36,008 nucleotides of DNA. It comes from Candidatus Neomicrothrix sp. UBA2110. GTDB taxonomy: Bacteria > Actinomycetota > Acidimicrobiia > Acidimicrobiales > Poriferisodalaceae. The stretch lies in NCBI GenBank assembly GCA_002331465.1, contig DCYM01000042.1, forward strand, positions 1-36,008. Reading direction: 5' to 3'. The stretch's first letter is position 1. Each line of letters opens with the position of its first letter. A program made the position numbers and the translations under genes. The notes under the pieces are model-generated. The model saw only the letters and a program-made list of their open reading frames with translations, searched no databases and was not told the DNA's origin. Below are positions 6,655-28,679 of the stretch, one piece after another.

Positions 6655-6685
6655 GGCGCACGGTTTGGGTTCGGGAGCGACGTGT

Positions 6686-8366: not shown

Positions 8367-8440
8367 ACCCCACTGTGATCTCAAACAAGCGTGTGACCTG
8401 AGATCGAAGACGGCGACAAGACAGACCCGACAGGAACGGT

Positions 8441-9352: not shown

Positions 9353-9359
9353 GAACGTC

Positions 9360-11396: not shown

Positions 11397-11397
11397 C

Positions 11398-12924
11398 GTG
11401 GCTACACGTAGAGGAGGCGGGCGAGCGGCTCGTCGTGAACTAAGAAGCGCCGCTCCCCCACCATCGGCTCCGTTTATGGAACGCAAGATGCCGCCAGTCG
11501 AGGTACTCGACGAAGAGGCGTTGGTTCAGATTGAAGAAAATGCGGAAACTATCCTGAGTGAAATCGGCATAGCGTTCCAAGAGTTCCCCGAAGCCCTCGA
11601 CTTGTGGCGCGGTGCAGGCGCTGAGGTTGAGGGAGATTTAGTTAAGTTTCCCAAAGGGCTATGTCGGCAGTTAGTTAAGGAATCTGCTCCGAGTATTTAC
11701 ACCCAACACGCTCGCAATCCGCAACGTTCCGTTCAGATTGGCGGCAACAACACAGTATTCGCCCCGAACTATGGATCACCTTTCGTGACAGATCTAGACC
11801 TCGGGCGCCGATACGCCACCCTGGAAGATTTCCAGAACGTGGTGAAACTTACATACAGCCTTCCAAATCTTCATCACAGCGGGGGCACCGTTGTCGAACC
11901 AGTTGATGTTCCAGTCAACAAACGACACCTCGACATGGTCTATTCACATTTGAAGTTCAGTGACAAGCCTCTGATGGGTTCGGTGACGGCCCCTGAAAGA
12001 GCTGTCGATTCTATCGAATTGTGTCGCCTTGCCTTCGGCGGAGATCTCAGTGACCGCACTGTTACCACCAGCCTCATCAATGCGTCTTCACCCCTGCGTT
12101 GGGATGCCACCATGTTGGGAGCAGCGAAGGTTTATGCTGAGAATAATCAAGCTTGCGTGATCTCACCGTTCATTTTGGCGGGTGCCATGTCGCCGGTCAC
12201 CGTGGCTGGGTTGGCTGCGCAAGCGTTGGCCGAAGCCCTTTCGGGCATGGCGTTTTGTCAACTTGTGAGGCCAGGCGCACCAGTGGTTTTTGGCACATTC
12301 GCCTCGTCTATGTCCATGGCGACCGGCGCGCCTACTTTCGGAACGCCCGAAGCAGGCCTAGCGATATATGTAATGGCCGCGCTTGCGAGACGAGTTGGTG
12401 TGCCGTTTCGTTCCGGGGGGCAAATGACTTCATCGAAGAGCCCTGACGCCCAAGCAGCTTACGAGTCACTCGCGACCCTGCTGCCCACGATGCAAGCGGG
12501 CGTAAATTTTGTTCTTCACGCTGCCGGCTGGATAGAGGGCGGGCTTGCTCTCAGCTACGAGAAGTTGGTGATGGATGCGGACCAACTGGGCATGATGCAG
12601 GTGTACGCGGACGGCGTGGACATGACTGAAAACGGGCAAGCCATGGATGCCTTTAGGACTAACCCGCATGGGCAACATTTCCTTGGGAATCCCCACACGT
12701 TGGAAAATTTCGAGTCTGCTTTCTATAGATCCCAAATTGCCGACAACAACAGTTACGAACAGTGGTTTGAGGAAGGCGAGAAGACCGCTGCACAGCGAGC
12801 GAACGAGATCTGGAAACAAATGTTGGCAGACTACGAACCACCACCACTCGATGAAGCGGTTGACTTGGCGATGCTTGACTACATGGCCCGCCGTAAGAGT
12901 GAAGAACCCGATGCGATTGGCTGA
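11398..12924 (+). CDS. MttB-superfamily (trimethylamine methyltransferase family) corrinoid-dependent methyltransferase, non-pyrrolysine type; quaternary amine (likely glycine betaine) substrate
   Basis: 508 aa with no internal TAG. AAGGAG lies 7 nt upstream of the GTG at 11398. The N-terminal RRGGGRAARR and the overall length and composition are typical of non-Pyl MttB homologues. It is the last gene of the corrinoid operon. Confidence 0.85.
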   Translation: MATRRGGGRAARRELRSAAPPPSAPFMERKMPPVEVLDEEALVQIEENAETILSEIGIAFQEFPEALDLWRGAGAEVEGDLVKFPKGLCRQLVKESAPSIYTQHARNPQRSVQIGGNNTVFAPNYGSPFVTDLDLGRRYATLEDFQNVVKLTYSLPNLHHSGGTVVEPVDVPVNKRHLDMVYSHLKFSDKPLMGSVTAPERAVDSIELCRLAFGGDLSDRTVTTSLINASSPLRWDATMLGAAKVYAENNQACVISPFILAGAMSPVTVAGLAAQALAEALSGMAFCQLVRPGAPVVFGTFASSMSMATGAPTFGTPEAGLAIYVMAALARRVGVPFRSGGQMTSSKSPDAQAAYESLATLLPTMQAGVNFVLHAAGWIEGGLALSYEKLVMDADQLGMMQVYADGVDMTENGQAMDAFRTNPHGQHFLGNPHTLENFESAFYRSQIADNNSYEQWFEEGEKTAAQRANEIWKQMLADYEPPPLDEAVDLAMLDYMARRKSEEPDAIG

Positions 12925-13752
12925 TCAGCCGCCGACTACCGCAGCTGTGCCTACTATCGCCATCGCGATGCCCCAGATCTGTCTTGCACTGGCTTGGTCG
13001 TTGTACGCAAATACTCCAACCAAGACGCTGAAAACCGGAAACAGAGACATAGCCACGACGGTGGCCAGAGGATCGAACTGCAGCCCGAGAAAACATGTGA
13101 TGCTGGCGCATCCGGCGAACACGCCAGCGACAAGTGCAGCCAAGCGTGTCCCGGACGGCGGTGTCATGGATGCGCGTGCGGTCATTGCGACGGGAACCAT
13201 GACTGCGAAGGCAAGTAAACGTTGGCTCGCGAGAACCCATGTCCCGCCGTTACCGGTCACGTTGAGTAGGACTGTTACCCCGAATCCGTACCCGAGTCCC
13301 GAACTCGACCCCCACAAGACTCCACTTTTGATTCTTCCCCCAACCTCCCCATCGGTGGTGACCATCACCAAACCCGCTAACGCTACGACGACGCCGATTG
13401 AGCCGAGTTGGGAAACACCTTGACCAATGGCGAGAACCCATATGAATGGCACACAAGTTGCTATGACCGCTGTTACGGGAGCCACCACGGCCGATGTCGT
13501 ATTTTTGAGACCGAAGTAGTAGCAGCAAAGTCCGGTGGCGAACCCGAGTCCTGATGCAGCGCCTAATGCAAGATCCCGGTATTCAGGTTTGCCGCGCCAT
13601 ATTAGGAGAGAGAGTGCCACGGTGACAGCACCAAAACCCTGCATCGCCGCTGCGCTGGTGATGGGTGAAGAACGGATTGAGACGCGCCTGCCGAATAGAT
13701 CCCCCAGACCTATCAAAAGAGCCGTCAAGAGGCCGAATGCTGCGCCGATCAC
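12925..13752 (-). CDS. DMT/EamA-family integral membrane transporter
   Basis: 275 aa with about 10 hydrophobic segments rich in Gly/Ala/Val, and a two-fold internal organisation typical of EamA. Its stop abuts the mttB stop. Confidence 0.65.
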   Translation of the reverse strand: MIGAAFGLLTALLIGLGDLFGRRVSIRSSPITSAAAMQGFGAVTVALSLLIWRGKPEYRDLALGAASGLGFATGLCCYYFGLKNTTSAVVAPVTAVIATCVPFIWVLAIGQGVSQLGSIGVVVALAGLVMVTTDGEVGGRIKSGVLWGSSSGLGYGFGVTVLLNVTGNGGTWVLASQRLLAFAVMVPVAMTARASMTPPSGTRLAALVAGVFAGCASITCFLGLQFDPLATVVAMSLFPVFSVLVGVFAYNDQASARQIWGIAMAIVGTAAVVGG

Positions 13753-13823
13753 TGACGTCTAATGGGGGTAGCCACGAAGGTGAGGGTACGCTGCCCATCG
13801 GTTAGCGGCTCGCGGAGAAACAG

Positions 13824-15497
13824 ATGACGAAAGCCTTGCGACGCGAAAAAGAAATCACTTACGACTTTGTCATTGTCGGTGGTGGTTCGGCAGGGTGCGC
13901 CCTCGCCAACCGTTTAAGTGAAGACGCCTCCACTGATGTGCTGCTGCTAGAAGCGGGACGCCCTGATTATATTTGGGACCCGTTCATCCACATGCCTGCT
14001 GCTTTTGCTTTTCCTATCGGTTCCCGTTTTTATGACTGGAGATATGAGTCAGAGCCCGAAGCGTCAATGAATGGCCGCCGTGTGTACCACGCTCGCGGGA
14101 AGGTGCTCGGTGGGAGCTCAAGCATCAACGGGATGATTTTTCAACGCGGTAATCCGCTAGATATGGAGAGGTGGTCGCAGCAACCAGGGATGGAAACATG
14201 GGATTACGCGCACACTCTCCCCTACTTCAAACGACTTGAGACCTGCCTTGCTGGCGGAGACCAATGGCGGGGCGATGTCGGTCCACTAAAACTTGAACGC
14301 GGCCCCGCTAAGGGACCGCTGTTCGAGGCGTTCTTCCTTGCATGTCAACAGGCCGGGTACTCGATGACCACCGACGTCAACGGATATCGACAAGAAGGGT
14401 TTGCGGCTTTTGATCGAAACATCTACCGCGGTCGACGGCTGAGTGCTGCACGGGCATACCTTCATCCGGTCATGAGCAGACCCAATCTTGTTGTCCGAAC
14501 GCGAACACACACGACTCGTTTATTGACTGAACACCAATGTGTTGTGGGGGTAGAGGCTGTTGAACGTTCAATGTTCGGCCGGCAGGGAAAGCCGGTTGAG
14601 TACCGGGCTAGGAACGTAATTTGTTGCGCTGGGGCGCTCAACACCCCTCAATTGCTTCAATTGAGTGGCATCGGTCCAAAGAAAATACTGGAAAAAGTCG
14701 GTATTCCAGTGGTCGCAGACCTACCCGGTGTGGGCGAGAACCTCCAAGATCACTTGGAGGTGTACATTCAGCACTCGTCGTTACAGCCCATTACCCAGCA
14801 ACCAAATTTATCGGTAGGGAGGCGGCCGTTGATCGGTCTTCAATGGTTGTTTCGGCGTGGACCAGCGACCTCAAACCATTTCGAAGCAGGTGGATTCGTT
14901 CGCAGCAATAGAGAGGCGTCTTACCCGAACCTAATGATGCATTTTTTGCCACTGGCAGTGCGATACGACGGCGAGGTCGCGAAAACCGACCATGGTTACC
15001 AGGTACACGTCGGCCCGATGTACGCAGACACGCGAGGGTCAGTGATGATCCAGTCCGATGACCCCTTCGTGAAGCCTCAGATCCGTTTCAATTATCTCAG
15101 TACTTGGAATGACTGCAGAGAGTGGATCGCGGCTGTGAAAACTGCTCGCAACGTTCTAAAGCAGCCCGCGTTCGACGAAATCAACGGGGGAGAACTGTCC
15201 CCCGGTCCGAATGTAGAAACTGACGAAGACATATTGGATTGGGTTCGACGCGATGCTGAAACAGCGCTCCACCCGTGTGGAACAGCGCGGATGGGTTTGG
15301 AAGCCCACGCGGTGGTGGACCCTAAGACAATGGGTGTTCATTCGATTAAGGGGCTCAAGGTGGTCGATGCTTCAGTCATGCCGTTCATCACCAATGGCAA
15401 TATCTACGCTCCAACCATGATGATCGCGGAAAAAGCAGCTGATTTGATCCTAGGGAATACTCCCCTAGAGCCGGAAGAGCCGGGTTTTCATCAATAA
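13824..15497 (+). CDS. betA: Choline dehydrogenase (GMC oxidoreductase)
   Basis: Strong resemblance to E. coli BetA along its length: [90 protein letters not shown]. Confidence 0.9.
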
Positions 15498-15533: not shown

Positions 15534-16763
15534 TCAGTGTCGACGTCGATATAGCAAAGCAACGACCATTCTCGATGCCCGTAACGGAAAGGGCTGAAAA
15601 CGGCTCTGTTCCTCGACTGGAGGAGCGTCATGGAGAAACACGCGATACAACAAATATGCGGTCATGACAACGAAAATCACCGCCGGCACGCAAAAGTACA
15701 TATTGAGGGAAGCACTCATTGCGGGTGCGGCGACCAAGGGTCCGACAAAAGCACCAACCCCATGTACTCGGACAAGCAGCGCCGCTGCACCTGTCATTTG
15801 CTCTGTTCGGAGCCAGTCATTGGTGTACGCGACCGTGATTGAGTAGATGGGGAAAGCCATCCCACCGATGAGGCCTAGGCAAACTATCGAAACAAGTCCC
15901 GCCCCACTGATCGCCAGCATCACAAAGCACATAGCCGCCGCCGCCGCGGATGCTGCCGTCAGGACGCCACGGCGAGGTACTCGGTCAGATAAACGTCCAA
16001 GAGGGATCTGGAGAAGCACGGACCCCAGAAGAGGCGCTCCGACAAAGTTTGCGATTGTAATTGCTCCCCACCCGTTTGCCGCTCCATAGACGGGGCCGAG
16101 GCCAATGATGATCCCTAGAGACATGCCCGAAAGGAAACAGACGACGAGGCCTGTCGGCACAATCGAATACAGAGCGCGCAGAGTAAAGGGTTCCGGTACA
16201 GCTACCGGTGGAGCCGTTCTGCTTGACAGCGCTATAGGCACAAGTGCCATTGAAACCATCACCGATGCGACCGCAAAGAGCGTGAAGCCGCTTGTGGTGG
16301 CGAGTCCAATGACATACTGGCCACTCATCGTGGCGCCTACCGCGATGACCGTGTACACGCTCAGTATGCGGCCTCGGGATTGGTTGGTGGCCAGGTCATT
16401 TAGCCAGGACTCCGCAACGACATATAGCGCGGCGCAGCACACTCCGAAGGCAAGGCGACACAAACCCCAACTGATCGGGCTTATCCAAAGTCCCTGCAGG
16501 AGAACGATGCTGGAGGCAGTTGAGGCCAAGCCCGCGAAAGTACGAATGTGACCCACTTTGGCTAGGGCGTGTCCTACGAATCGGGTCCCCACCATAAAGC
16601 CCGCGTAATAGAGGGCCATTACGAGGGATGCGGTAAGCGTGCTAAATCCAGCTTCCTCTGCTCGCAAACCCAGCAGGGGACGTTGAAGGCCCACCCCTGC
16701 CTGCAACAGCGCTATGCCTAAGAAAAGAGACCACGCGTTGGAAGTGATGGAGGGTTTCGGCAC
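15534..16763 (-). CDS. MFS transporter
   Basis: 409 aa with about 12 predicted TM segments. An MFS-like loop motif (LGRLSDRVPRRG) lies between helices. Confidence 0.75.
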   Translation of the reverse strand: MPKPSITSNAWSLFLGIALLQAGVGLQRPLLGLRAEEAGFSTLTASLVMALYYAGFMVGTRFVGHALAKVGHIRTFAGLASTASSIVLLQGLWISPISWGLCRLAFGVCCAALYVVAESWLNDLATNQSRGRILSVYTVIAVGATMSGQYVIGLATTSGFTLFAVASVMVSMALVPIALSSRTAPPVAVPEPFTLRALYSIVPTGLVVCFLSGMSLGIIIGLGPVYGAANGWGAITIANFVGAPLLGSVLLQIPLGRLSDRVPRRGVLTAASAAAAAMCFVMLAISGAGLVSIVCLGLIGGMAFPIYSITVAYTNDWLRTEQMTGAAALLVRVHGVGAFVGPLVAAPAMSASLNMYFCVPAVIFVVMTAYLLYRVFLHDAPPVEEQSRFQPFPLRASRMVVALLYRRRH

Positions 16764-16886: not shown

Positions 16887-17753
16887 TCAGGGTGCTTCTC
16901 TCGGTTTGAATTCAGGAGCATGGACGTACTGCCACCCAAAGCGGCCCTTGATGCATAGATGGCCTGAAGTTACTGAATGGTCGGACGGCGAGGTGACCTT
17001 AACTATGTGATTGTCTTGCGTGTGAAGTTCCAGGCTGCAACCCACACCGCAATACGAACAGACGGTTTCGGTTACTGTTTGCTCCGACGGTCGCCAGTCG
17101 TTGGCATCGCGAAGATCGAACTCAGTTTTAAATTGCAGAGCGTTGGTGGGACACACTCCGACGCAGTTTCCGCAATACACACATGCAGATTCTGGGAGCG
17201 GCACTTCATATTCAGTAGAGACCCGAGCATCGAAGCCGCGGCCAGCGATAGCGATAGCAAAAGTGTGTTGGGCATCATCTCCGCACGCCTCAACGCACTT
17301 GTAGCAAAGGACGCACTTGTCGTAAGCGCGAACGAAGAGATCATCTTCAATTTTAATTTGGTCTTCAATTTTAGCTGGGGCTTTGTATCGCTCAGTGTCA
17401 ACGTCGTACATCTCCGACCAGGCCACCAGATCGGGGCTTTGCGACAGGTCGTTACTAGACGCCAAGAACTCTAAAACCATCTTTCGGCTCCGATGGACGC
17501 GGTCGGTGTCCGTCAGAATTTGTGCACCGTCTTCACATACCCGAGAGCATGACGAAACCAACGTCCGGGACCCTTGTTGTTCGACGACGCAAAGCCTGCA
17601 TGCATTGGCAGGTGTGAGATTCTCAGCCCAACAAAGAGTCGGTATCTCTATCCCTGCTGAGTTTGCTGCCTGGAGAAGCGTCGTTCCCCCCTCAACTCTG
17701 ACCTTTATGCCGTTGATGTGTACCGAGACTTGGGAATCGCCTTGTTCTTTCAT
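16887..17753 (-). CDS. Formate dehydrogenase Fe-S module (NuoG/FdsA N-terminal-like): [2Fe-2S], His/Cys [4Fe-4S], 2x[4Fe-4S] ferredoxin, plus the MopB FS0 [4Fe-4S] domain, with no molybdopterin domain
   Basis: VHINGIKVRVEGGTTLLQAA..CRLCVVE (2Fe-2S); CVLCYKCVEAC and CVYCGNCVGVCP (ferredoxin clusters); C-terminal CSYCGVGCSLE...GHLCIKGRFGWQYV (Molybdop_Fe4S4-type motif). The protein ends about 15 aa after that motif. ATGA overlap with the upstream gene. Confidence 0.85.
   Translation of the reverse strand: MKEQGDSQVSVHINGIKVRVEGGTTLLQAANSAGIEIPTLCWAENLTPANACRLCVVEQQGSRTLVSSCSRVCEDGAQILTDTDRVHRSRKMVLEFLASSNDLSQSPDLVAWSEMYDVDTERYKAPAKIEDQIKIEDDLFVRAYDKCVLCYKCVEACGDDAQHTFAIAIAGRGFDARVSTEYEVPLPESACVYCGNCVGVCPTNALQFKTEFDLRDANDWRPSEQTVTETVCSYCGVGCSLELHTQDNHIVKVTSPSDHSVTSGHLCIKGRFGWQYVHAPEFKPREAP
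17344..17373 (-). repeat. In-frame 18-nt-period direct repeat (12 nt identical) inside the Fe-S module linker
   Basis: TCTTCAATTTTA occurs at 17344-17355 and again at 17362-17373. It encodes KIEDQ-IKIEDD. Confidence 0.6.
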
Positions 17754-19489
17754 GGCGCACCTGAGGGCAAAAGTCCGAGATCAAGCGCCGATTGGATGGC
17801 CGATGCCGCTGTGTGTCCCAGTCCGCAAATCGAGGCGTCACCCATCACCGCAGAGATGTCGTCAAGTAGCTCCCTTTGAGTTTGGTCGGGTCCTTTTGCG
17901 TTTATCTGAAGGAGGACCTCGTGCTGTCGCACTGTCCCAATCCGGCACGGAACGCACTGACCACAGGACTCATCACGGAAAAATTGGGCGAGACGGCGAG
18001 TGACATCCAACATGTTGACTTCATTTGAGAAGACCATCAGCGCCCCTGAACCCAAAGTGGTCTCATTAGCGGCTGCATCTTCGAGCGTCAGCGGGAGGTC
18101 CAGTTTCTCTGGGCCGACGAAACGACCGGCTGCGCCTCCCATAAGGATCGCTTGCAGGTCCCCCACCACTCCCCCAGCTATTTGCAATAGTTCTCCGAGC
18201 GAGACTCCGAAGGGAATTTCATACAATCCCGGAAATCGTATGTGCCCAGACAAACAAAACAATTTTGTTCCAGGAGATCGCTCGGTGCCTAATGACCGGT
18301 AGGCATCCACTCCACTGTTCAAAATTTCGAGCACGTTGATCAACGTTTCGGGATTGTTGATGACCGTGGGCTCGCCGAATAACCCGCTAGTCGTAGGAAA
18401 GGGGGGTTTGCTTCGCGGTTCTCCGCGCTGGCCTTCAATTGAGTTAAATAAAGCCGTTTCTTCGCCACAGATGTATGCGCCGGCGCCTCGTCGGACCTCG
18501 ATATCGAAGGAGTATTCAGAACCAGCGATCTTGGGTCCAAGGTATCCAGAGGCACGAGCGCTTTGTATTGCATGGTTTAATCGGCGTGTGGCTAGTGGGT
18601 ATTCGCCTCGGATATAAATCCACCCACGTTCTGATCCGGTGGTAACGCCTGCGATCGTCATCGCTTCAATAACCGCGAACGGATCATTTTCCATAATTAG
18701 GCGGTCCTTGAAAGTTCCGGGTTCGCTCTCGTCTGCGTTGGCGACAACGTGTTTAGAGGAAGAGTTCTCCTCAGCAACCGCACGCCACTTGGTTCCAGTA
18801 GGAAACGCCGCTCCGCCTCTTCCAGACAAACCAGATGCCTCGAGTGTGCTCAGTACTGCGTCGGTCCCGATGTTTAGGGCTAGAGCCAACGCGTCATAGC
18901 CACCGTTGGACTTATAAGAATCGATGCTCAGTGGGTCCGCGACACCAAAGCGTCTTAGCAATCGGAGAGAGGAGTCACCTCGTTGGGGATGAGAAAAACC
19001 ATCAGCGTCCGCTGGAACTCGATCGGGCGCGCCGACCTCTTGAATAAACATTGCAGGAGCGCGCTCACACTGCCCGAGGCAAGGGCTTTCGTGAACTCGC
19101 TGTCCGGTTGCTTGGATTTTAGATAGCAGGTCTGCTGAGCCGGCCATGGCGCATGCTGCATCAACACAAATGTGGTGTTGAGGGCCCGGGATAGAGGGTT
19201 TTTCAGTTGCAAACAAATCGTAAAATGTTGCTACGCCATATGCTTCGGCGGGAGGTACCTGAAGAACTTCCGCCAAATAATTGAGACCGCCGGGGCTTAT
19301 CCAGCCCTGCGAGTTTTGAAGCACATGTAGACCAGGGAGCAGTAGGTGCCGTTGCTCACGACGGCGCGTTACCCCGCCGCGTACGACTCTCTCTCCCTCG
19401 CGAACAACAGCTGTTTTGGTAACGAAGGAGTCGACAATTTGTATTTCCTCTGCATCGGGGCGAGCATCGCCGAATTGGAGGTCAGCCAC
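17750..19489 (-). CDS. NAD(H)-binding diaphorase subunit of formate dehydrogenase: NuoE-like [2Fe-2S] fused to NuoF-like FMN/[4Fe-4S] (FdsG-FdsB fusion)
   Basis: NuoE part: GVATFYDLF, CVDAAC...CLGQC. NuoF part: GRGGAAFPTGTKW, ESEPGTFKDR, ESCGQCVPCRIGT, ICGLGHTA. The ORF track starts at 19594 and overlaps fdhA by 113 nt. The GTG at 19489 overlaps the fdhA stop (GTGGCTGA) and leaves a normal-length NuoE N-terminus. The start is uncertain; TTG at 19501 is also possible. Confidence 0.8.
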   Translation of the reverse strand: MADLQFGDARPDAEEIQIVDSFVTKTAVVREGERVVRGGVTRRREQRHLLLPGLHVLQNSQGWISPGGLNYLAEVLQVPPAEAYGVATFYDLFATEKPSIPGPQHHICVDAACAMAGSADLLSKIQATGQRVHESPCLGQCERAPAMFIQEVGAPDRVPADADGFSHPQRGDSSLRLLRRFGVADPLSIDSYKSNGGYDALALALNIGTDAVLSTLEASGLSGRGGAAFPTGTKWRAVAEENSSSKHVVANADESEPGTFKDRLIMENDPFAVIEAMTIAGVTTGSERGWIYIRGEYPLATRRLNHAIQSARASGYLGPKIAGSEYSFDIEVRRGAGAYICGEETALFNSIEGQRGEPRSKPPFPTTSGLFGEPTVINNPETLINVLEILNSGVDAYRSLGTERSPGTKLFCLSGHIRFPGLYEIPFGVSLGELLQIAGGVVGDLQAILMGGAAGRFVGPEKLDLPLTLEDAAANETTLGSGALMVFSNEVNMLDVTRRLAQFFRDESCGQCVPCRIGTVRQHEVLLQINAKGPDQTQRELLDDISAVMGDASICGLGHTAASAIQSALDLGLLPSGAP

Positions 19490-21413
19490 GCGAAGTACCA
19501 ATGGGAAGCTTGTCGATCCGAATCGATGCGGCTTTGAATTCCGCTGTACCGCTGAGCGGATCCCACTCATCGTTGGTGAGAAGGTTGAGGTCAACTAACT
19601 CGGGAAAATGGAACGTCGAAAAGGTCAAGCCTGTGACTTGGTCTGGTTCGATTTTGATGTGCATTTCGACTCGGCCCCGAGGTGAGGACACTGACACCCT
19701 TTCACCATCAACGAGATTGAGGTTCAGGGCGTCAACTGTGCTGATTTCGAGATGTGAACCGGAACGTATCGGAGATTCATAGCCGCTGGATTGGACTCCT
19801 GTGTTGTAGGAGTCGAGCACTCTGCCGGTAGTTAAACGCAACGGATAGTCGTCGGTTAATTGTTCTTTGGGGCCTGCGTAGCGGGTAAGTGAGAAAGGTG
19901 CAGGTGCGCGCCCGTCCAGGTCGTCCTCCCAGAGCCACCCGTGTAGGTATGGCGTGCCGGGGTGATCAATATTCGGGCACGGCCACTGCAGTCCGCCTTC
20001 AGTTTCGAGGCGGTCGTAGGTCATGCCAGCGTGCATTGAAGACAAGGACCGGAGTTCATCCCATAGTTCTTCGGGAGTTTTAGCGGTCCATTTGGCCCCC
20101 ATGCGTTGAGCAAGTTCGCCAATAATTTCGTAATCGTGTCGACAGTCCCCCGGCGCCTTGACTGCGGCTCGCACGCGTTGCACTCGTCTTTCGCTTGATG
20201 TCACAGTGCCTTCGGATTCAGCCCAGCCGACAGTCGCTGGAAGTACAACGTCGGCGAGTTGTGCGGTGCGAGTAAGGAATATGTCTTGAACCACAAGAAT
20301 GTCGAGTTGAGCGAGGAGTTTCCTCGTGTGGTCGACGTCGGCTTCTGAATCGGCAGGGTTTTCGCCGATGATGTACAGAGCCGTCAAGTCGCCTCGGGCC
20401 ATGGCTTCGAACATCAACGTTAGGTGGAGCCCAGGTTCTGGATTGATAGGGCCGCCGTAAACTGATTCAAATTTTGCTCGGGCTGAGTCGTCAGCGACAT
20501 CTTGGAATCCAGGCAGTTTGTTGGGGAGGGCGCCCATGTCGCCGCCCCCTTGCACGTTGTTTTGGCCACGAAGCGGCACTAGGCCCGAGCCCCACCGACC
20601 GACGTGCCCGGTTAATAAGGCAAGGTTGCAGAGCGATAGCACGTTTTCAACGCCATTGTGATGCTCTGTGATTCCCAGAGTCCAAAGAATTTGCGCAGTG
20701 GGTGCAGTTGCGTACCCGTGTGCTAATTCCCGTATCGCATTCGCATTAACCCCGGTGGTTGCTGCTGCTCGCTCCAGCGTGTATTCATCGACGTGATCGG
20801 CGAAGGCGTCGAACCCTGACGTTGCGTGTTCGATGAACTCTTTGTTGTGGAGATTCGCGGCAATTATTTCCCTCGACATGGCATTGGCTAGCGATATGTC
20901 AGTGCCGACGCCTATTCCGAGCCACAGATCTGCAAATTTGGCAGATGCGGTTCGTCTAGGGTCGACGGCGAACATTTTGGCGCCTTTAGAAAGTCCTTTA
21001 AGGACATGATGAAAATAGATCGGGTGCGCGGCCCTTGCATTAGATCCCCACAACAAAACAAAGTCCGTATCTTCTACCTCCGCGTAGGAAGAGGTCCCGC
21101 CCCCGACCCCAAACACTGTCGCCAGACCGACGACGCTAGGAGCGTGTCAAGTTCGGTTACACGAATCAATATTGTTCGAACCGACGGCAGTACGGATAAA
21201 TTTTTGGGCCGCGTAGTTCATCTCGTTGGTGCTTTTCGAACAACTGAAGAGACCGAATGTTTCATGACCACGGTCATTTATGGCTTGATTGAAGCCGTCC
21301 GCTGCACGGGTGAGTGCTTCATCCCAAGAGGCTTCCCGCAGTTCTCCGTTTTCGCGAACCATGGGTTTGGTGATCCGTGCTAACGGCTTGGGATGGTCTG
21401 TCTTCGAGGTCAT
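19482..21413 (-). CDS. fdhA: Formate dehydrogenase catalytic (Mo/W-bisPGD, MopB) subunit containing selenocysteine; in-frame UGA at 21149..21147; lacks the N-terminal FS0 cluster domain
   Basis: ORFs 21147..21542 and 19482..21116 share one frame. Read-through gives SNNIDSCNRT-U-HAPSVVGLATVFGVGGGTSSY. The ATG at 21413 has AGGAG 5 nt upstream. The C-terminal molybdopterin dinucleotide-binding domain is present (RLTTGRVLDSYNTG...GERVSVSSPRGRVEMHIKI). Confidence 0.85.
21118..21134 (-). promoter_or_regulatory. Bacterial SECIS-like hairpin directing Sec insertion at the fdhA UGA
   Basis: The mRNA reads UGA-CACGCUCCUAGC-GUCGUC-GGUCU-GGCGAC: a 6-bp stem (one G.U) with a GGUCU loop, starting 12 nt after the UGA. 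E. coli fdhF has UGA-N12-GGUUGCAGGUCUGCACC with the same GGUCUG apex. Confidence 0.65.
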
Positions 21414-21602: not shown

Positions 21603-21642
21603 GCTGTTCCACGATGTGGCACACTCAGGACGGAGGTTTCTA

Positions 21643-22386
21643 ATGGCAGTCGTGCAATCGGTACACAGGGCGTTCGCGATTTTGCGAGCACTTTCTTCTG
21701 GTCCGCTAGGAGTGACTGAGGTATCTCAGCGAGTGGGATTGCCCAAAAGTACCGTGGCCCGCTTGTTGGCGGCTCTTGATGAAGAAGGGGCGGTGCGTCA
21801 AGGTCAAGCTGGTGGTCGATATTCGTTGGATGATGGACTTCTTGATCTGGCGGGCGAAATCGGTGGTAATCGAACCTTGCTAGCGGTGGCTCGATCGCAT
21901 TTATTGGACTTGGTCGACTCAATTGGTGAGACCTCAGGTATTGGAGTGAGGGAAGGCCGGGAGATCTACTACGCCGACCACGTTGAGTTCGATAGCCAAG
22001 TTCAGGTCAGGAATTGGACTGGAGAACATGCCCCTCTACATCTTGTTCCATCTGGCCTCGTGTTTTTGGCACACATGAAAACCGAAGAGGTTGACGCTTA
22101 TTTAGATGAGCCTTTGGAGGTTACGACCGCTCAGAGCGAAGTAGATCCGGTGAAGATTCGACAACGCCTTGGACAAATTCGCAGAGTCGGGTATTGCTGG
22201 GGACACCAGGAATTCGCCGAGGATCTCAACTCAATGGCAGCACCTGTTTTCAACGCTAGAGGCAACATGGTCGCTGCTCTCCACGTCCACGGACCTGCCT
22301 ACAGGTTCCCTGACCCTGAGCAAACGCACGACTTGGGTATCCTGTTGGCCGCTACTTGCGAGCGGATGACTCTTCAGCTCGGTTGA
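21643..22386 (+). CDS. IclR-family transcriptional regulator
   Basis: The N-terminal wHTH SVHRAFAILRALSSGPLGVTEVSQRVGLPKSTVARLLAAL and the C-terminal effector domain are typical of IclR. GGAGG lies 6 nt upstream of the ATG at 21643; the ORF track starts at 21616. Confidence 0.85.
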   Translation: MAVVQSVHRAFAILRALSSGPLGVTEVSQRVGLPKSTVARLLAALDEEGAVRQGQAGGRYSLDDGLLDLAGEIGGNRTLLAVARSHLLDLVDSIGETSGIGVREGREIYYADHVEFDSQVQVRNWTGEHAPLHLVPSGLVFLAHMKTEEVDAYLDEPLEVTTAQSEVDPVKIRQRLGQIRRVGYCWGHQEFAEDLNSMAAPVFNARGNMVAALHVHGPAYRFPDPEQTHDLGILLAATCERMTLQLG

Positions 22387-22418: not shown

Positions 22419-23396
22419 TTAGCTTCTACGTCTCTTAACTTCTTCGATGACTGCCGGGATGACTTCGTGGAGGTCCGCGATAACCGCGTAACCGGCTTTG
22501 GTAACCATGTTTGCTTCGCGGTCTGTGTTGATGGCGAGAATATTTTTTGATGCCATCGCGCCTACCCAATGCTGGATAGCCCCTGAGATGCCACACGCGA
22601 TGTAGATCTCGGGCGCAATGCGAGTGCCGGTCTGGCCCACCTGGTCGGCGTGGCTTCGCCAACCATTGTTGGTGACTGCCCGAGAGCAGCCGACGCGGCC
22701 GCCGAGAAGGTCTGCTAATTCCTCCAGTTGGGCGAAACCGTCGGCAGAGCCCACGCCGCGGCCGCCGGACACCACTACGGATGCCGTCGAGAGGGTGACC
22801 CCCTCGGTCAGCGTCACGCGATCCCGAATAACTGTCCGCCCCAAAGTGGGGTCCAGTTCTACCCCAACGGTTCGAACTTCTATCTCATTGTCCCCGGGGA
22901 AGAAGGCGGGTTCAATCGAATGGTGGTTATAGGACGCTATGAGCAGCTCTGAGTCAACAACGATGTCTTCTAGGAGGGATCCACCCCACTGAACCCGAGT
23001 TATTTCCCACGCATCGCCACGTTGAACGACGGTGCTGTTAGCGGCGAAAGGGGCACCCAACCTTGCGGCAACTTGCGCTAACACCTCATTGCCGCGGTCA
23101 GTCCCAACTGAGAGGATTACGGACGGCGAACACTGGTTTGCGAGTTCGACAATGGCCTGGCCCCATGTTTCTGGGCCGTAATCGGATAGAACCGGAGAGG
23201 TCAGACAATAAGCCAACTGCACTCCGTACTCCGCGCACATCGTTCCAAGGCCCTCGGCGGCTTGCCCGACTAAGACAGCAGCGGTTTTTTGAGACAGCCT
23301 TTCTCCCAGTTCTCTGGCGGCAGTTAGAGCCTCGCCCGCCGAGGGTGATAGTTGTCCTTGGTCGTGTTCCACGAAAACCAAAATTTCGCCCATCAC
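22419..23396 (-). CDS. etfA: Electron transfer flavoprotein alpha subunit
   Basis: The C-terminal FAD-binding signature PEIYIACGISGAIQHWVGAMASKNILAINTD is present. ATGA-type overlap with etfB. Confidence 0.9.
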   Translation of the reverse strand: MMGEILVFVEHDQGQLSPSAGEALTAARELGERLSQKTAAVLVGQAAEGLGTMCAEYGVQLAYCLTSPVLSDYGPETWGQAIVELANQCSPSVILSVGTDRGNEVLAQVAARLGAPFAANSTVVQRGDAWEITRVQWGGSLLEDIVVDSELLIASYNHHSIEPAFFPGDNEIEVRTVGVELDPTLGRTVIRDRVTLTEGVTLSTASVVVSGGRGVGSADGFAQLEELADLLGGRVGCSRAVTNNGWRSHADQVGQTGTRIAPEIYIACGISGAIQHWVGAMASKNILAINTDREANMVTKAGYAVIADLHEVIPAVIEEVKRRRS

Positions 23397-24160
23397 AGCA
23401 CCCCCAACTCGTCCAGTAAATCGACTACTCGCGCGGCGGCGGCTGCGCTCTCGCCTAGGACATTGGTTTCCGTGACTCTTTCCTCGGGCCGATGAAGGCG
23501 AACCTTATTCTGTCCTCCTGCGTGCACCTCGATAGGGGCGATAGCGATTTCAGCTTTCTTGGAGGCGAGTCGGCCTTTCATTGTGGGATAGCGAGGAAGG
23601 TTGATACCTTCGCGGACCCCGAGCACCGCTGGCGCTTCAAGTTGATAGACCTCTACGCCGGTGTCTACCTCGCGCCGGGCGGTGAAAACACGGTCGTTGA
23701 TCTCTATGCCTTTGATGCCATTAACGATGGGGCGATCCAACGCGACGGCGACCCTAACTCCTACCTGGAAGCCACCTGCATCCGCGGATTCGTTTCCAAA
23801 CATAATGAGGTCAAACTGGCCGTCCTCTGCTTCCAACTTGTTGATGGCTTGGGTGATCGCGTTTGCGGTGCGCTCAGGGTCCCAATCGCCTCCGCTGTTG
23901 TTGGGAATCAGCACAAAGTCAGTGCCCCCGACGCTCGCGGCGTAGCGGAGTTGCTCTTCCGCTTCGGTTGGCCCGGCGGTTAGGACCGTAACGGTCCCAC
24001 CATGTTGCTCAATGATCTGAGCGGCTTCTTCGAGCGCGCACTCTTCGTGAGGGCTCGTTGTGAAGCCAAGGTGGGCAGTATCTACATTTAGCTGGTCAGG
24101 GCTTATGTTGATGCGTGAACCCGGAGCAGGTACTCGTTTCACGCAAACCAGAACCCGCAT
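23393..24160 (-). CDS. etfB: Electron transfer flavoprotein beta subunit
   Basis: MRVLVCVKRVP N-terminus, about 255 aa, immediately upstream of etfA. AAGGAG lies upstream of the ATG. Confidence 0.9.
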   Translation of the reverse strand: MRVLVCVKRVPAPGSRINISPDQLNVDTAHLGFTTSPHEECALEEAAQIIEQHGGTVTVLTAGPTEAEEQLRYAASVGGTDFVLIPNNSGGDWDPERTANAITQAINKLEAEDGQFDLIMFGNESADAGGFQVGVRVAVALDRPIVNGIKGIEINDRVFTARREVDTGVEVYQLEAPAVLGVREGINLPRYPTMKGRLASKKAEIAIAPIEVHAGGQNKVRLHRPEERVTETNVLGESAAAAARVVDLLDELGVL

Positions 24161-24196
24161 CGATTCTCCTTAGTGACGGTGTTGATGTGACTGGCC

Positions 24197-26722
24197 TTAA
24201 GCTTTCATGCGCCCATTGTCAGGGTCAAAAAGAGCCAGGTTGGCTCCGGTGGCGGCGACCTTCACAGGATAGTTTTCGTTCTGATACATGACTTGTAGAT
24301 CGGTGCCGATTTCACATAGATCAGTTGGTAAATAGGCCATCAAGAGATATTTACCAACGGAAGGAGCGTTACCGGCCGTAGTGACCCTGCTAACTCTGCC
24401 TTTTGCGTCGACGATACGTTCGCCGCTCAACGTCAGTATTGGTTCATTTCCAGCGCCCATGGGAAACCGATTGTAACCGTCAATGCACGCGTGACTTTCG
24501 ACCGTGAGCACACACAATTGAGCGCAAGGAGCTCCTTCGCGGGCGGTCAGATAGGCCTCTTTGCCGATGAAGTCAGCAACCTTCACCTTCGGTCGCGCTA
24601 AGCCAGCTTCGACGGGCGTGTATTCGCTGTCTAACTCGGCGCCCATCAAGCGGTAGCCCTTCTCGATCCGACCGCTGGTGCCGTAGACCGCCGCGCCCAC
24701 TGGGCGAAGGTCGAAGTTGGATCCCTGATCGATGATGGCGTCCCACAGCGCAAGTCCATGTTGCGTTGGCGTGTATATCTCGAAGCCAGCGTCGCCTACG
24801 TACGACACTCGAAACATGTCTGTCGGAAGGCCAGCAATCAGGACCTCCTGGCAGGTGCCATAAGGGAAAGCGCTTTGATCGAGATGTGATTCGGTTATCC
24901 CTTGAAGAATTGAAATTGCGTTCGGACCCCAAACGCCAAAAGTACACAAACCATTAGTTCGATTTTCGAACTGAACGGTGCCATCTCCGGGGAGGTTGTG
25001 TCGGAACCAGTACTCGTCGCGCCCACCGTCAAAGGCTCCGGTGATGATCCGGAACCTGTTTTGTCCCAACCTGAGAATCGTTAAGTCTGACCGAAATCCG
25101 CCTGAACTGTTCAGAACTGGAGTGTAAATCGAACCACCAATTTTGACGTCACACTTGTTGACGACCATGTGTTCGATGTAATCGAGAACTCCGGGACCAC
25201 TGACTTCGAAAACCTGGAACGCTGAAAGGTCGACAATGCCCGCTTGGTCACGCATGTGCAGGTGTTCAGCATCAGAGATGGGGGTCCACCAACGCGCGTC
25301 CCATTCGTGGTCTCGCCCCGGAACCTCGTAAGTGGCAACTAAATCGTTGTTGGACTCGTACCAGTGTGGGCGTTCCCACCCGCCGGCTTCGAAATAAAAC
25401 GCTTCGAGTACGTCAGTGCGAGCTTTGACGGGCCCCGTGGTGATGTCTCGTCTTGTCGCCCACTGCTCTCTGGGGTGCACGATGCCGTAGGTTTTGTTGA
25501 AATGTTCCTCAGCGCGCGCCTCGATGTGATGAACGTTGCGTTGCTGTGGGTAGAAGCGAGCGATGTCGGCGCCATGTGGGTCAGTCAAATGCGGGTAACC
25601 GTGAGTCATCCATTCGGCTACTAGCCGTCCAACTCCTGGGCCTTCTTTGACCCAAACAGCTGCTGCCGACCACAGATTGTCAACCTCCACTGTCGGCCCT
25701 AGCACAGGGTTGGCGTCAGGTGTCAGTGAGAGCAGACCGTTAATCGCGTACTTAATTTCTCCGTCACCCAAAAACTCCATCAACTCGATGGCTTCCTCCA
25801 TTTGTTGGTCGAAGTCGTCGGCGGTGAAGGGCATTTCAGTCGGACTGAGTGCCGCTTCGTTATTGGAGGGAATTTCGTCAACTCGGTGGAGGATTGGTCG
25901 GTGGGCGTAGGAGCCGACTTCCATGGAGCCCGCAGATTGACGTTCATAGCAGAAGGTGTCCATGTCGCGAACGATGGGATAGGCCAGTTCTTGCTGAGTT
26001 TCCACCAAGACATCAAATGGACCGACATCGGCCATTTGGTGGACAGCCGGGGTAAGTGGAATTGTCGCGCCCGCCATTTCGGCCAGTCGGGGACTCCAAA
26101 CGCCGCAGGCGATGACAACGGTCTCGCATTCGATGCGGCCCTTGTCCGTCAGCACGGCCTGGACTAGGGGTTTGTTTGGTCCTGTCGAAGTTTCGATATC
26201 GATGACTTCTGTATTTGCAAATACTTGCAAGCTTCCGGCGTCTTGCGCCTTTTTGCGCATCTGAGTGCCAGTTTCGAGCGAATCAACGGCACTCACGCTC
26301 GGGGTATAGAAGCCCCCAAGGATGACGTCGACGGAAATGAATGGGACACGTTCCTTTACCTCTGCCGGGGTAAGGAGTTCCGATGGGATCCCCCAGCAGG
26401 TAGCGGAGGTCATCCGTCGCTTGAACTCTTCCAATCTCTCTGGAGTTCGGGCTACTTCAATGCCACCGCATGTGTTCTGAAGTCCCAATTCCTCGTACTG
26501 CTTTTGACTGTCCAAAGTGAGATCGACGATTTCCTTTGAATGGTCCGCTGGGAAAATGAAATTCGAAGCGTGGCCTGTTGATCCTCCCGGGTTTGGCAAT
26601 GGTCCTTTGTCGAGGAGCACGATGTCATCCCAACCCATATCGGTTAAATGCCCGACAAGGCAGTTTCCGACGATGCCAGCACCGATTACGACGCATTTGG
26701 CTTTTGTTGGAAAATCACTCAC
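24197..26722 (-). CDS. Dimethylglycine / sarcosine dehydrogenase family enzyme (FAD-dependent oxidoreductase fused to a GcvT-like folate-binding aminomethyltransferase domain)
   Basis: 841 aa with a GTG start and GAGGG 5 nt upstream. N-terminal dinucleotide fold CVVIGAGIVGNCL. The C-terminal half shows GcvT-like motifs (DLSAFQVFEVSGPG, YTPVLNSSGGFRSDLTILRL, and the barrel domain at the end). Adjacent to etfBA. Confidence 0.85.
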   Translation of the reverse strand: MSDFPTKAKCVVIGAGIVGNCLVGHLTDMGWDDIVLLDKGPLPNPGGSTGHASNFIFPADHSKEIVDLTLDSQKQYEELGLQNTCGGIEVARTPERLEEFKRRMTSATCWGIPSELLTPAEVKERVPFISVDVILGGFYTPSVSAVDSLETGTQMRKKAQDAGSLQVFANTEVIDIETSTGPNKPLVQAVLTDKGRIECETVVIACGVWSPRLAEMAGATIPLTPAVHQMADVGPFDVLVETQQELAYPIVRDMDTFCYERQSAGSMEVGSYAHRPILHRVDEIPSNNEAALSPTEMPFTADDFDQQMEEAIELMEFLGDGEIKYAINGLLSLTPDANPVLGPTVEVDNLWSAAAVWVKEGPGVGRLVAEWMTHGYPHLTDPHGADIARFYPQQRNVHHIEARAEEHFNKTYGIVHPREQWATRRDITTGPVKARTDVLEAFYFEAGGWERPHWYESNNDLVATYEVPGRDHEWDARWWTPISDAEHLHMRDQAGIVDLSAFQVFEVSGPGVLDYIEHMVVNKCDVKIGGSIYTPVLNSSGGFRSDLTILRLGQNRFRIITGAFDGGRDEYWFRHNLPGDGTVQFENRTNGLCTFGVWGPNAISILQGITESHLDQSAFPYGTCQEVLIAGLPTDMFRVSYVGDAGFEIYTPTQHGLALWDAIIDQGSNFDLRPVGAAVYGTSGRIEKGYRLMGAELDSEYTPVEAGLARPKVKVADFIGKEAYLTAREGAPCAQLCVLTVESHACIDGYNRFPMGAGNEPILTLSGERIVDAKGRVSRVTTAGNAPSVGKYLLMAYLPTDLCEIGTDLQVMYQNENYPVKVAATGANLALFDPDNGRMKA

Positions 26723-26971
26723 TTTGGCCCTCTTTGCTTGGCATTTTCACTTTGAGGTAACTCTAGAAGCGCTACTGGATAACGGCGTGCAAACTTACTC
26801 CCTTATCCCACCCGCTCTACCACCATGGGGCCTGGTCTGAACCCTCGCATGCATTCTGTATGATGGAACTGTTCCGCAGAGTGAAACAATATCCGTCGAG
26901 TTGGAGGCTGTCCATGTCGGAATGTTTCATCCTGAGCTACCAGAATCGGCCCACCAAGGAGAATGGTTCTC

Positions 26972-28669
26972 ATGGGGATTCCTAGCGATCTTGAGATAGC
27001 CAACCAGGCTTCATTATTACCTCTGTCAGAGGTCGCCTCCAAGGCCGGCATACCACTTGAATATCTCGAGTTCTATGGCAAGGGCGCGGCGAAGATTCAA
27101 CTTGAAGCGATCCCCGCGATGGCAGAACGTCCCTTTGCTAAATACGTTGTTGTGTCAGCCATCACTCCAACACCACTTGGTGAGGGTAAGACCACCACGA
27201 CAGTCGGCTTAGGACAGGCTTTTCAACACATAGGTCGAAGCGCCACCATAGCGATCCGTCAACCTTCGATGGGCCCCACCTTCGGCATCAAAGGTGGGGC
27301 GGCCGGGGGTGGCTATAGCCAAGTGGTTCCAATGGAACTGTTCAACATGCACCTGACGGGCGATATGCACGCCGTCACCGCTGCGCACAACATGTGTGCC
27401 GCTGTTTTGGATGCGCATCTGTATCACGGCAACGATCTAAAACTTGATATCCACAACATCACGTGGCGCAGAGTCGTGGACATTAATGATCGCGCGCTCC
27501 GCAATGTCACTATTGGCTTGGGGGGCTCATTAGACGGCATACCTAGAGAGAGCGGCTTTGATATCACGGCAGCTTCTGAGGTCATGGCGGCTCTAGCCTT
27601 GGCGACGTCATTGCAAGATTTGCGGGCGAGAATGGGCCGTGTCGTTGTTGGATATACCAAGGACGGCAGTCCCGTAACCGCCGAAGATCTCGGAGTTGCT
27701 GGCTCGATGACCGTCATCCTTCGCGAGGCAATTAAGCCAAATCTGATGCAAACCCTTGAAGGCACTCCAGCGTTGGTTCATACAGGCCCATTCGGGAACA
27801 TAGCGACGGGCAATTCATCGATTGTTGCTGACCAGATTGGCATCCGGACTGGCGACTTTTTGCTGACAGAAGCGGGTTTTGGGGCTGATATGGGAGCTGA
27901 ACGCTTCTTCAACATCAAGTGCCGTTACTCCGGGCTGGCTCCCGACGCAGCAGTCTTGGTGGCGACCGTTCGCGGGTTGAAGGCGCATTCTGGTAACCAC
28001 AGGATTGTCGCGGGAAGACCCCTCCCTGAGGCCCTGCTCATGGAAAATCCCGATGAGGTCCACGCGGGAGGTGACAATCTGCGTAAACAACTTGAGAACA
28101 TGCGGATTCACGGGGTCACGCCGGTAGTCGCAATTAACACGTTTCCTGGGGATCACGAAAAAGACTTAGAAGCCGTGGTGGAGATAGCAGCAGAATATGG
28201 TGCCCGGTCGGCGCTCTGCACGCATTTCGCGGATGGCGGCCGCGGAGCCACCGACCTGGCGGAAGCAGTGGTTGAAGCGGCCGCCGAGGAGAGCCAGTTC
28301 TCCCCTCTGTATCCCGACGAAATGAACCTTCGGGACAAAATCAGAACCGTGGCGCAAAAGGTTTATGGAGCGGAAGATGTTTCCTTCACCGCACGGGCAA
28401 ACAAACAGCTCGACGGATACGAACGCAATGGTTTCGGTGATTTACCTGTGTGTATTGCAAAGACCCATTTATCAATTTCCTCCGACCCGAAGTTGGTGGG
28501 CGCCCCCACTGGGTGGACGCTCCCGGTCCGGGAGGTGCGAGCTTCTGTTGGCGCTGGATTCGTCTACCCAATTTGCGGCGATATGCGAACGATGCCGGGC
28601 CTTGGCAAGAACCCCGCGGCGAAGAGGATCGATATCGACGCTGACGGAAACATAGTTGGCCTAAGTTAG
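26972..28669 (+). CDS. fhs: Formate--tetrahydrofolate ligase
   Basis: Motifs ITPTPLGEGKTTTTVGL, the P-loop context, HTGPFGNIA and ICIAKT-like CIAKTHLSISSDP. The AAGGAGA at 26956-26962 favours the ATG at 26972 over the ORF-track ATG at 26963. Confidence 0.93.
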   Translation: MGIPSDLEIANQASLLPLSEVASKAGIPLEYLEFYGKGAAKIQLEAIPAMAERPFAKYVVVSAITPTPLGEGKTTTTVGLGQAFQHIGRSATIAIRQPSMGPTFGIKGGAAGGGYSQVVPMELFNMHLTGDMHAVTAAHNMCAAVLDAHLYHGNDLKLDIHNITWRRVVDINDRALRNVTIGLGGSLDGIPRESGFDITAASEVMAALALATSLQDLRARMGRVVVGYTKDGSPVTAEDLGVAGSMTVILREAIKPNLMQTLEGTPALVHTGPFGNIATGNSSIVADQIGIRTGDFLLTEAGFGADMGAERFFNIKCRYSGLAPDAAVLVATVRGLKAHSGNHRIVAGRPLPEALLMENPDEVHAGGDNLRKQLENMRIHGVTPVVAINTFPGDHEKDLEAVVEIAAEYGARSALCTHFADGGRGATDLAEAVVEAAAEESQFSPLYPDEMNLRDKIRTVAQKVYGAEDVSFTARANKQLDGYERNGFGDLPVCIAKTHLSISSDPKLVGAPTGWTLPVREVRASVGAGFVYPICGDMRTMPGLGKNPAAKRIDIDADGNIVGLS

Positions 28670-28679
28670 GACGTCGACG

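Follow-up and report, generated by a model that had tools for sequence, protein, structure and literature searches.

A stretch of 36,008 nucleotides from Candidatus Neomicrothrix sp. UBA2110 (contig DCYM01000042.1; the whole stretch is referred to below as the window) was found to contain three minus-strand genes, tightly packed head to tail from position 21413 to 16887, which in all likelihood encode a nicotinamide adenine dinucleotide (NAD)-linked formate dehydrogenase (FDH) whose alpha subunit is divided between two polypeptides. In the direction of transcription, the genes encode a catalytic protein, a fusion of NuoE- and NuoF-like proteins (NuoE/F), and an iron-sulfur (Fe-S) protein, so that the NuoG-like Fe-S domains and the catalytic domains are located on separate genes with the NuoE/F gene in between. 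The features of the operon are as follows (aa, amino acids; Sec, selenocysteine; SECIS, selenocysteine insertion sequence):

19482..21413, minus strand: catalytic subunit gene of 643 codons, including one UGA; Molybdopterin and Molydop_binding domains present, FS0 domain absent
21147..21149, minus strand: in-frame TGA, codon 89 of the catalytic gene, read as Sec (CNRT-U-HAPS) at the Sec/Cys-His dyad position of formate dehydrogenases
21118..21134, minus strand: SECIS-like hairpin GUCGUC-GGUCU-GGCGAC with a 6-bp stem, starting 12 nt 3' of the UGA
17750..19489, minus strand: gene of the NuoE/NuoF fusion (diaphorase subunit), 579 aa from a GTG start, assigned by Pfam domains and alignment with PDB chains
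16887..17753, minus strand: gene of the Fe-S subunit, 288 aa, with one [2Fe-2S], two ferredoxin-type [4Fe-4S] and the FS0 [4Fe-4S] cluster motifs, assigned by Pfam
16920..17078, minus strand: FS0 (Molybdop_Fe4S4) domain, residues 226–278 of the Fe-S protein, C232-x2-C235-x3-C239...C267-x-K269

The catalytic gene starts with an ATG at 21413, preceded by an AGGAG motif, and ends with a stop codon at 19484..19482. A GTG at which the NuoE/F gene can start overlaps this stop (cGTGGCTGA), and the ATG of the Fe-S gene overlaps the NuoE/F stop (ATGA). The gene order and both overlaps had been described in the original prediction, made from the sequence alone, and were confirmed here. The Pfam search, which had been proposed along with it, assigned the Molybdopterin domain (PF00384) to residues 13–436 of the catalytic protein (E = 2.6e-72) and Molydop_binding (PF01568) to residues 525–628 (E = 4.3e-19), and it detected Fer2_4 and Molybdop_Fe4S4 on the 288-aa protein. 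No match to Molybdop_Fe4S4 (PF04879) was obtained in the catalytic protein, the FS0 domain residing on the 288-aa protein. The in-frame stretch 5' of the catalytic ATG was devoid of a Cys motif and ended at a stop.

The best family for the catalytic protein was the NCBIfam model TIGR01591 (Fdh-alpha), with 638.3 bits over model positions 52–672; the second-ranking models were of the NasC type (419 bits). Its top PDB matches were all formate dehydrogenases, with the highest score obtained for T. kivui FdhF (489 bits); residues 13–633 aligned with residues 308–931 of Rhodobacter capsulatus FdsA (430 bits), and Escherichia coli FdhF (PDB 1aa6) scored 423 bits. The CNRT-U-HAPS motif and the conserved-Arg motif PLRGQNNVQG, both read in the translation, aligned with the same motifs in T. 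kivui FdhF and F420-dependent FDH. Direct reading of the N-terminus revealed no twin-arginine signal; therefore, the protein should be cytoplasmic. As far as can be judged from its translation, the protein carries every sequence-readable hallmark of a formate dehydrogenase.

The position of the cut was defined by the same comparisons. On R. capsulatus FdsA, the alignment with the Fe-S protein ends at residue 303 and that with the catalytic protein begins at 308, leaving a break of residues 304–307. Thus, the cut lies in the short linker that joins FS0 to the first MopB domain. The aligned part of FdsA on the Fe-S side comprises residues 23–119 and 180–303, the second block corresponding to Fe-S residues 145–277. 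The TIGR01591 model was shared out just as cleanly, with positions 1–50 on the tail of the Fe-S protein (55.9 bits) and 52–672 on the catalytic protein. A split of the alpha subunit at the FS0/MopB junction, with FS0 forming the C-terminus of the 288-aa protein, had been claimed from the letters of the sequence; the Pfam, TIGR01591 and FdsA/PDB alignments agree with it, and Molybdop_Fe4S4 at residues 226–278 is a complete domain.

The Fe-S protein comprises a Fer2_4 domain (residues 7–83), two ferredoxin-type CxxCxxCxxxC 4Fe-4S motifs (146–205) and a complete FS0 domain (E = 8.9e-21, profile positions 2–54 of 55), ending 10 residues further. Its best PDB match was StnC. In an alignment of 37 sequences, all 16 of the cluster-ligand Cys residues were invariant, as were the FS0 residues C232, C235, C239, C267, K269, G270, R271, F272, G273 and W274. 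The invariance of the four FS0 Cys residues and of the Lys beside the fourth indicates that FS0 is under selection. This Lys is presumably analogous to Lys44 of E. coli FdhF, which is positioned between cluster and pterin. The 120 best homologues of the Fe-S protein were 272–334 aa long with the same domains, and the [2Fe-2S], two ferredoxin-type and FS0 motifs were kept in every one of them. On the other hand, the NADH-G_4Fe-4S_3 domain (PF10588), which the original prediction had expected, had no Pfam match in the window protein and was absent from 120/120 homologues, none of the 120 containing the HxxxCxxCxxxxxC motif of the His-ligated cluster. In the R. capsulatus FDH, the His-ligated cluster A4 is located at the dimer interface, off the path from bis-molybdopterin guanine dinucleotide (bis-MGD) to flavin mononucleotide (FMN) (PMC7171172); its loss should thus leave the main electron path intact.

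In the NuoE/F protein, Pfam identified 2Fe-2S_thioredx (PF01257), Complex1_51K (PF01512), SLBB and NADH_4Fe-4S (PF10589). The Cys motifs for a [4Fe-4S] and a [2Fe-2S] cluster could be read directly, and the diaphorase feature of the FMN/NADH site was present. The highest PDB scores of the NuoF part were obtained with the Bfu-type subunits StnB and HydB (357–368 bits), and the only PDB chain that aligned over both halves of the protein (residues 42–568) was M. extorquens Fdh1B (7e5z_B). No additional C-terminal ferredoxin domain was detected as a Fer4 match, and the protein ends about 10 residues past PF10589. The first ~40 residues, ahead of the NuoE-like domain, had no Pfam match and differed in length among loci. 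The start candidates are GTG 19489 and TTG 19594; public gene calls take the 579-aa form.

The distribution of the layout was assessed in a species-level scan with one genome per species, which returned at least 549 matching stretches; the best 80 were used for the locus analysis. The order catalytic, NuoE/F, Fe-S on one strand was found in about 60 of the 80 and, apart from the exceptions below, wherever the upstream DNA sufficed. The carriers among the best 80 loci belonged to Acidimicrobiia (including Ca. Poriferisodalis, Ca. Microthrix and Ilumatobacter), Acidobacteriota (Bryobacterales and Terriglobia), Eremiobacterota/Vulcanimicrobiota and Chloroflexota. The family occurs commonly in Acidimicrobiia from marine and sponge habitats and in Acidobacteriota from soil. 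A survey of synteny had been suggested with the original prediction, and it revealed conservation of the layout across at least four phyla. The 288-aa Fe-S protein was found in identical form on 17 contigs, and three independent metagenome assemblies had the same gene layout over 20 kb. The catalytic protein had been described as lacking a cluster-binding N-terminus, and this description stands: none was encoded upstream here or in the approximately 60 related loci examined, none of which had a cluster motif 5' of the catalytic gene. In 62 of 77 loci, the NuoE/F stop and the Fe-S start could overlap by 4 nt, and one locus departed from the tight spacing with a 1.9-kb gap. In the related loci, the Fe-S open reading frame (ORF) stopped 0–27 residues past the end of an alignment that reached FS0. 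The few apparent exceptions proved to be alignments running through the stop or an ORF without further domains. A 1149-aa ORF at locus L077, considered as a fused form, was rejected, its domains being confined to the first 330 residues.

The catalytic gene contains an in-frame TGA at 21149..21147, a codon overlooked in the original prediction, where the gene had been read continuously. The codon equivalent to codon 89 was TGA in all 61 related loci whose alignment covers it, and the protein was conserved on both sides. No full-length Cys form was found among the 120 best database homologues of the catalytic protein; all of them were 538–570 aa long, the length expected from a gene call cut at the TGA. 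This selenoprotein is systematically mis-annotated in public gene calls, which on related contigs (L081–L083) break the gene at the TGA into fragments of 71 or 88 aa and 544 or 497 aa.

The UGA is followed by the SECIS-like hairpin, which was accepted only on comparative analysis (pairing and synonymous-site entropy) and not on folding energy. In 38 distinct sequences, the GGUCU loop was invariant and 99.6% of the cells were paired, with a compensatory double change from C-G to G-C at one pair in three of the sequences. The third-codon-position entropy was 0–0.29 bit within the hairpin versus mostly 1.1–1.9 bit at the flanking four-fold sites; the near-frozen synonymous sites therefore indicated a constraint on the RNA. 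The SECIS of E. coli fdhF begins 11 nt 3' of its UGA, with a closely similar apical sequence of the GGUCU type. A lower stem, ACAC:GUGU, was dropped from the model, since its 3' side lands on a variable wobble position. An Rfam gathering search of the window matched no family, the hairpin included. Taken together, the conserved in-frame TGA and the conserved SECIS hairpin indicate that the enzyme is a selenoprotein, with the UGA of the catalytic subunit predicted to be decoded as Sec.

Relatives outside the family were sought in a representative protein library clustered at 50% identity. The family had two full-length representatives in it, with 59% and 48% identity, and the latter showed the same gene order. 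The next relatives, with at most 41% identity, were fused alpha subunits. Many of them were present as ~360-aa fragments ending in "...NNIDHCARL" and are therefore cut at their own Sec codon. When the Fe-S and catalytic proteins of the window are aligned with fused proteins, for example P0197, they abut exactly; P0197 and another fused relative, P0170, keep the His-cluster domain PF10588. One close fused relative had the operon order NuoE-NuoF-alpha, of which the window order is a cyclic rotation (MopB, E.F, FeS from E, F, FeS.MopB). It had been argued that a fission plus a rearrangement or circular permutation is implied, and this is a fair inference in view of the NuoE-NuoF-alpha order in the nearest fused relative with diaphorase genes. 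The family probably had a single origin in a fused NuoE-NuoF-alpha operon that underwent fission in the FS0/MopB linker and cyclic rotation; a single fission with rotation appears to be the most economical account, and the rotated order would result if a tandem duplication lost both of its ends. The 1405-aa protein P0123, a candidate for a permuted fusion, turned out to consist of two complete fused alpha subunits, one after the other. Alpha modules can therefore be duplicated in tandem, which bears on the duplication-and-truncation route. In the source annotations, the parts are named "2Fe-2S iron-sulfur cluster-binding protein," "YjgC" and "formate dehydrogenase subunit alpha." Full-text searches and targeted reading of the literature yielded no account of an FDH whose FS0 lies on a separate Fe-S subunit, and we consider the layout an apparently undescribed variant of NAD-linked metal-dependent formate dehydrogenase.

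On the basis of the FDH hallmarks of the catalytic protein, the Fdh1B-like NuoE/F protein and the invariant Cys and Lys residues of FS0, we propose that the three genes encode a three-subunit formate:NAD+ oxidoreductase. It would very likely be a cytoplasmic, Sec-dependent, NAD-linked enzyme of the FdsABG/Fdh1AB kind with a Mo/W-bis-pyranopterin guanine dinucleotide (Mo/W-bisPGD) cofactor and with the alpha subunit present as two polypeptides. Formate would be oxidised at the Mo/W centre of the 643-aa subunit by means of Sec89, His90 and the Arg of RGQNNVQG. The FS0 [4Fe-4S] cluster, located in the C-terminal domain of the 288-aa subunit that keeps the conserved Lys beside the fourth Cys, would then receive the electrons over a non-covalent interface. 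From there, they would travel via both ferredoxin-type clusters and the [2Fe-2S] cluster to the [4Fe-4S] cluster and FMN of the NuoE/F fusion, where NAD+ would be reduced. NAD+ would thus probably be the acceptor, and formate oxidation the direction.

An adaptation to selenocysteine decoding could conceivably lie behind the split and the gene order, an idea to which we give a small chance; a related idea is that the FS0-bearing Fe-S/diaphorase module is a swappable unit that could work with various catalytic partners. In a fused alpha subunit, failed UGA decoding would leave a ~370-aa NuoG-like Fe-S fragment that could bind the diaphorase and form dead complexes or complexes producing reactive oxygen species. 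Here, the UGA is codon 89 of the first gene, and failed decoding would therefore yield only an 88-residue peptide. If this is true, the coupled downstream genes would be translated mainly upon Sec insertion, tying the supply of the Fe-S module to selenium availability.

The gene context was consistent with a role in C1 metabolism. The regions 6665–15497 and 22419–29564 of the window form a choline/glycine-betaine methyl-group oxidation island around the operon. It includes a BetA choline dehydrogenase, which scored above the curated cut-off, a non-pyrrolysine MttB-family methyltransferase with a corrinoid protein, RACo activase, a pterin-binding methyltransferase and DUF1638, as well as a dimethylglycine dehydrogenase (DMGDH)-like enzyme, electron transfer flavoprotein (ETF) alpha and beta, formate-tetrahydrofolate ligase (FTHFS) and an MTHFR-like gene. 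All-against-all ORF clustering of the related loci was swamped by antisense ORFs in this GC-rich DNA; therefore, targeted tblastn was used instead, and it located the MttB-family, DMGDH-like, ETF and FTHFS genes each beside the operon in 7–12 relatives. FTHFS lies directly 5' of the operon in several relatives. Since the methyl-oxidation genes share the window and several of them recur beside the operon in relatives, the role of the enzyme here is most likely the removal of formate from choline/glycine-betaine methyl groups oxidised via the folate pathway. A possible regulator is encoded next to the operon:

21616..22386, plus strand: IclR-family regulator, divergent, candidate operon regulator (Pfam HTH_IclR and IclR_C)

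An IclR homologue was located near the operon in 21 of the 80 related loci, and the protein may regulate the operon. The promoter and terminator scan gave counts at chance level, and no tRNA was detected in the window by ARAGORN. On the other side, 120 bp 3' of the Fe-S gene, a major facilitator superfamily (MFS) transporter gene is located on the minus strand (15534–16763), with a homologue in the same position in eight related loci. Two 303-aa antisense ORFs, 8359–9270 (minus strand) and 8441–9352 (plus strand), overlap almost fully; a domain (Pterin_bind) was detected only on the plus strand, and the minus-strand ORF is probably spurious. A gene at 29581–30795 (minus strand) encodes a 404-aa protein of the D-2-hydroxyacid dehydrogenase family, best classified as phosphoglycerate dehydrogenase, with a score below the cut-off. 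As a second FDH it was rejected: its score against the metal-free NAD-dependent FDH was 146 bits, with a cut-off of 329.

Several observations weigh against the proposed enzyme. The catalytic protein alone, with 638.3 bits, remained under the curated TIGR01591 equivalog cut-off of 666.25; this shortfall is explained by the 51 missing model positions, which sit on the Fe-S protein, and the summed bits of the Fe-S tail and the catalytic protein would clear the cut-off. Two Chloroflexia metagenome-assembled genomes (loci L074 and L077) had the NuoE/F and Fe-S genes, but the 7 kb on each side of them contained no catalytic gene. The catalytic gene could be located elsewhere in these genomes, or the module could have another partner. 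In both loci, the NuoE/F gene was spread over several reading frames, possibly as a result of errors in long-read assembly. In a single-sequence fold, the 76 nt after the UGA folded no better than shuffled sequences (z = +1.22). The selABCD, fdhD/fdsC, fdsD and mobA genes were absent from the scanned ORFs of the window and could lie elsewhere in the genome. Sec-containing FDHs have been described as rather oxygen sensitive (PMC7171172), whereas the genes around the operon suggest an aerobic setting. A monomer model of the Fe-S subunit, computed with 37 sequences, was poor (mean predicted local distance difference test score, pLDDT, 55.6). Finally, the complex of the three proteins and the docking of FS0 on the catalytic subunit are inferred by us indirectly.

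Four other explanations were considered. The layout could be an assembly or sequencing artefact or a decaying pseudogene, that is, a contiguous fdsA-like gene that has been broken, with the TGA as a true stop, and gene callers do split the catalytic gene at this codon into the fragments given above. The original prediction had named an artefact as grounds for abandoning the split. However, the same Fe-S protein occurs on 17 contigs and the same layout in the three independent assemblies, the gene order recurs in genomes of four phyla, and the TGA is present in 61/61 loci with the protein conserved on both sides. Together with the compensatory change in the conserved hairpin 3' of the TGA and the invariance of all cluster ligands, this effectively refutes the artefact or pseudogene reading. 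It is also highly improbable that the NuoE/F and Fe-S proteins form a general diaphorase module, which either has a vestigial FS0, like N7 of complex I, or serves other partners, with the catalytic subunit using another acceptor. The two Chloroflexia loci and the higher score of the catalytic protein against the stand-alone FdhF type than against FdsA (489 versus 430 bits) would fit such a module, but the catalytic protein has no cluster of its own for exporting electrons, FS0 shows no variation in its Cys ligands or in the Lys that follows the fourth Cys, and in nearly all loci with sufficient flanking DNA the three genes lie side by side in a single order. The exact abutment of both halves on fused relatives such as P0197 likewise argues against it.

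The remaining two explanations concern the reaction itself. An electron-bifurcating enzyme similar to Bfu or HylABC, or a physiological CO2 reductase, instead of a simple formate:NAD+ oxidoreductase would be in line with the best PDB scores of the NuoF part (StnB and HydB, 357–368 bits) and with StnC as the best match of the Fe-S protein, and the separate NuoG-like subunit recalls HylA. Nevertheless, we consider it quite unlikely: the NuoE/F protein ends right past NADH_4Fe-4S without the extra ferredoxin domains of the HydB type, the sole PDB chain spanning both of its halves is the non-bifurcating Fdh1B, and the choline dehydrogenase, DMGDH-like, ETF and FTHFS genes in the window point to C1 oxidation. 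A substrate other than formate, as in a nitrate-reductase-like or YjgC-like oxidoreductase, might be suggested by the score under the TIGR01591 cut-off, the NasC-type matches at 419 bits and the name "YjgC" given to relatives in some sources. This possibility is very unlikely, as the Fdh-alpha model is far ahead (638 versus 419 bits), the shortfall is accounted for by the 51 positions on the Fe-S protein, the catalytic protein has the Sec-His dyad and RGQNNVQG, the top PDB matches are all formate dehydrogenases, and FTHFS is directly 5' of the operon in several relatives. Thus, a formate:NAD+ oxidoreductase with a divided alpha subunit remains the preferred interpretation.

FS0 is normally treated as integral to molybdopterin catalytic subunits, whereas here it is located on another protein, and the first electron-transfer step would therefore cross a subunit interface. 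Such a split FDH offers a natural test of the organisation of this step and might serve as a modular design in the engineering of CO2/formate catalysts. Every family member examined uses selenocysteine, with TGA in 61/61 loci. Since gene calls truncate the catalytic subunit and its Fe-S partner is generically named, formate oxidation and selenium use are likely under-counted in these bacterial groups. The finding is of moderate specialist interest and of practical value for the correction of annotations.

Comparison with known systems demonstrated that the window enzyme has the same modules (NuoE-like, NuoF-like, NuoG-like Fe-S, FS0 and MopB) as FdsABG(D), the NAD+-dependent Mo-FDH of R. capsulatus and Cupriavidus necator (PDB 6tg9; PMC7171172). 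However, its alpha subunit is two polypeptides in a rotated gene order, NuoE and NuoF are fused, and the enzyme lacks the His-ligated A4 that lies at the dimer interface of FdsA. Sec takes the place of Cys386 of FdsA as the active-site ligand; in addition, no fdsC or fdsD was found in the window, and the scanned ORFs had no match of the FdhD/FdsD type. The tungsten NAD-FDH Fdh1AB of Methylobacterium extorquens (PDB 7e5z, 7vw6) has a NuoE/NuoF fusion as its beta subunit, as in the window. Its Fdh1A aligns with both the Fe-S and the catalytic protein, but it is a single 989-aa chain (Fe-S domains, FS0, MopB), whereas the window encodes proteins of 288 aa and 643 aa with the catalytic gene first.

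Among split systems, the FdhF2-HylABC FDHs of acetogens and purine fermenters have a NuoG-like Fe-S protein apart from the Sec catalytic subunit, with NuoE/NuoF-like partners. There, the cut is upstream of FS0, and the catalytic FdhF keeps this domain; in the window, FS0 belongs to the Fe-S protein instead, and the NuoF-like part is without the extra Fe-S domains of bifurcating enzymes. E. coli FdhF (FDH-H) shares the Sec-His dyad and the Arg motif with the window protein, where the hairpin starts 12 nt after the UGA, but its FS0 is N-terminal on the same chain, and its electrons go to hydrogenase-3 subunits and not to a NuoEFG-type module. In the formylmethanofuran dehydrogenase FwdB/FwdD of M. 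wolfeii, the MopB fold is split at the C-terminus (PMC7171172). FwdB/FwdD is thus a precedent for a MopB enzyme with its canonical domains on two polypeptides; however, the separate piece in that enzyme is the C-terminal dinucleotide-binding domain, whereas in the window it is the N-terminal FS0 domain, fused to the NuoG-like module.

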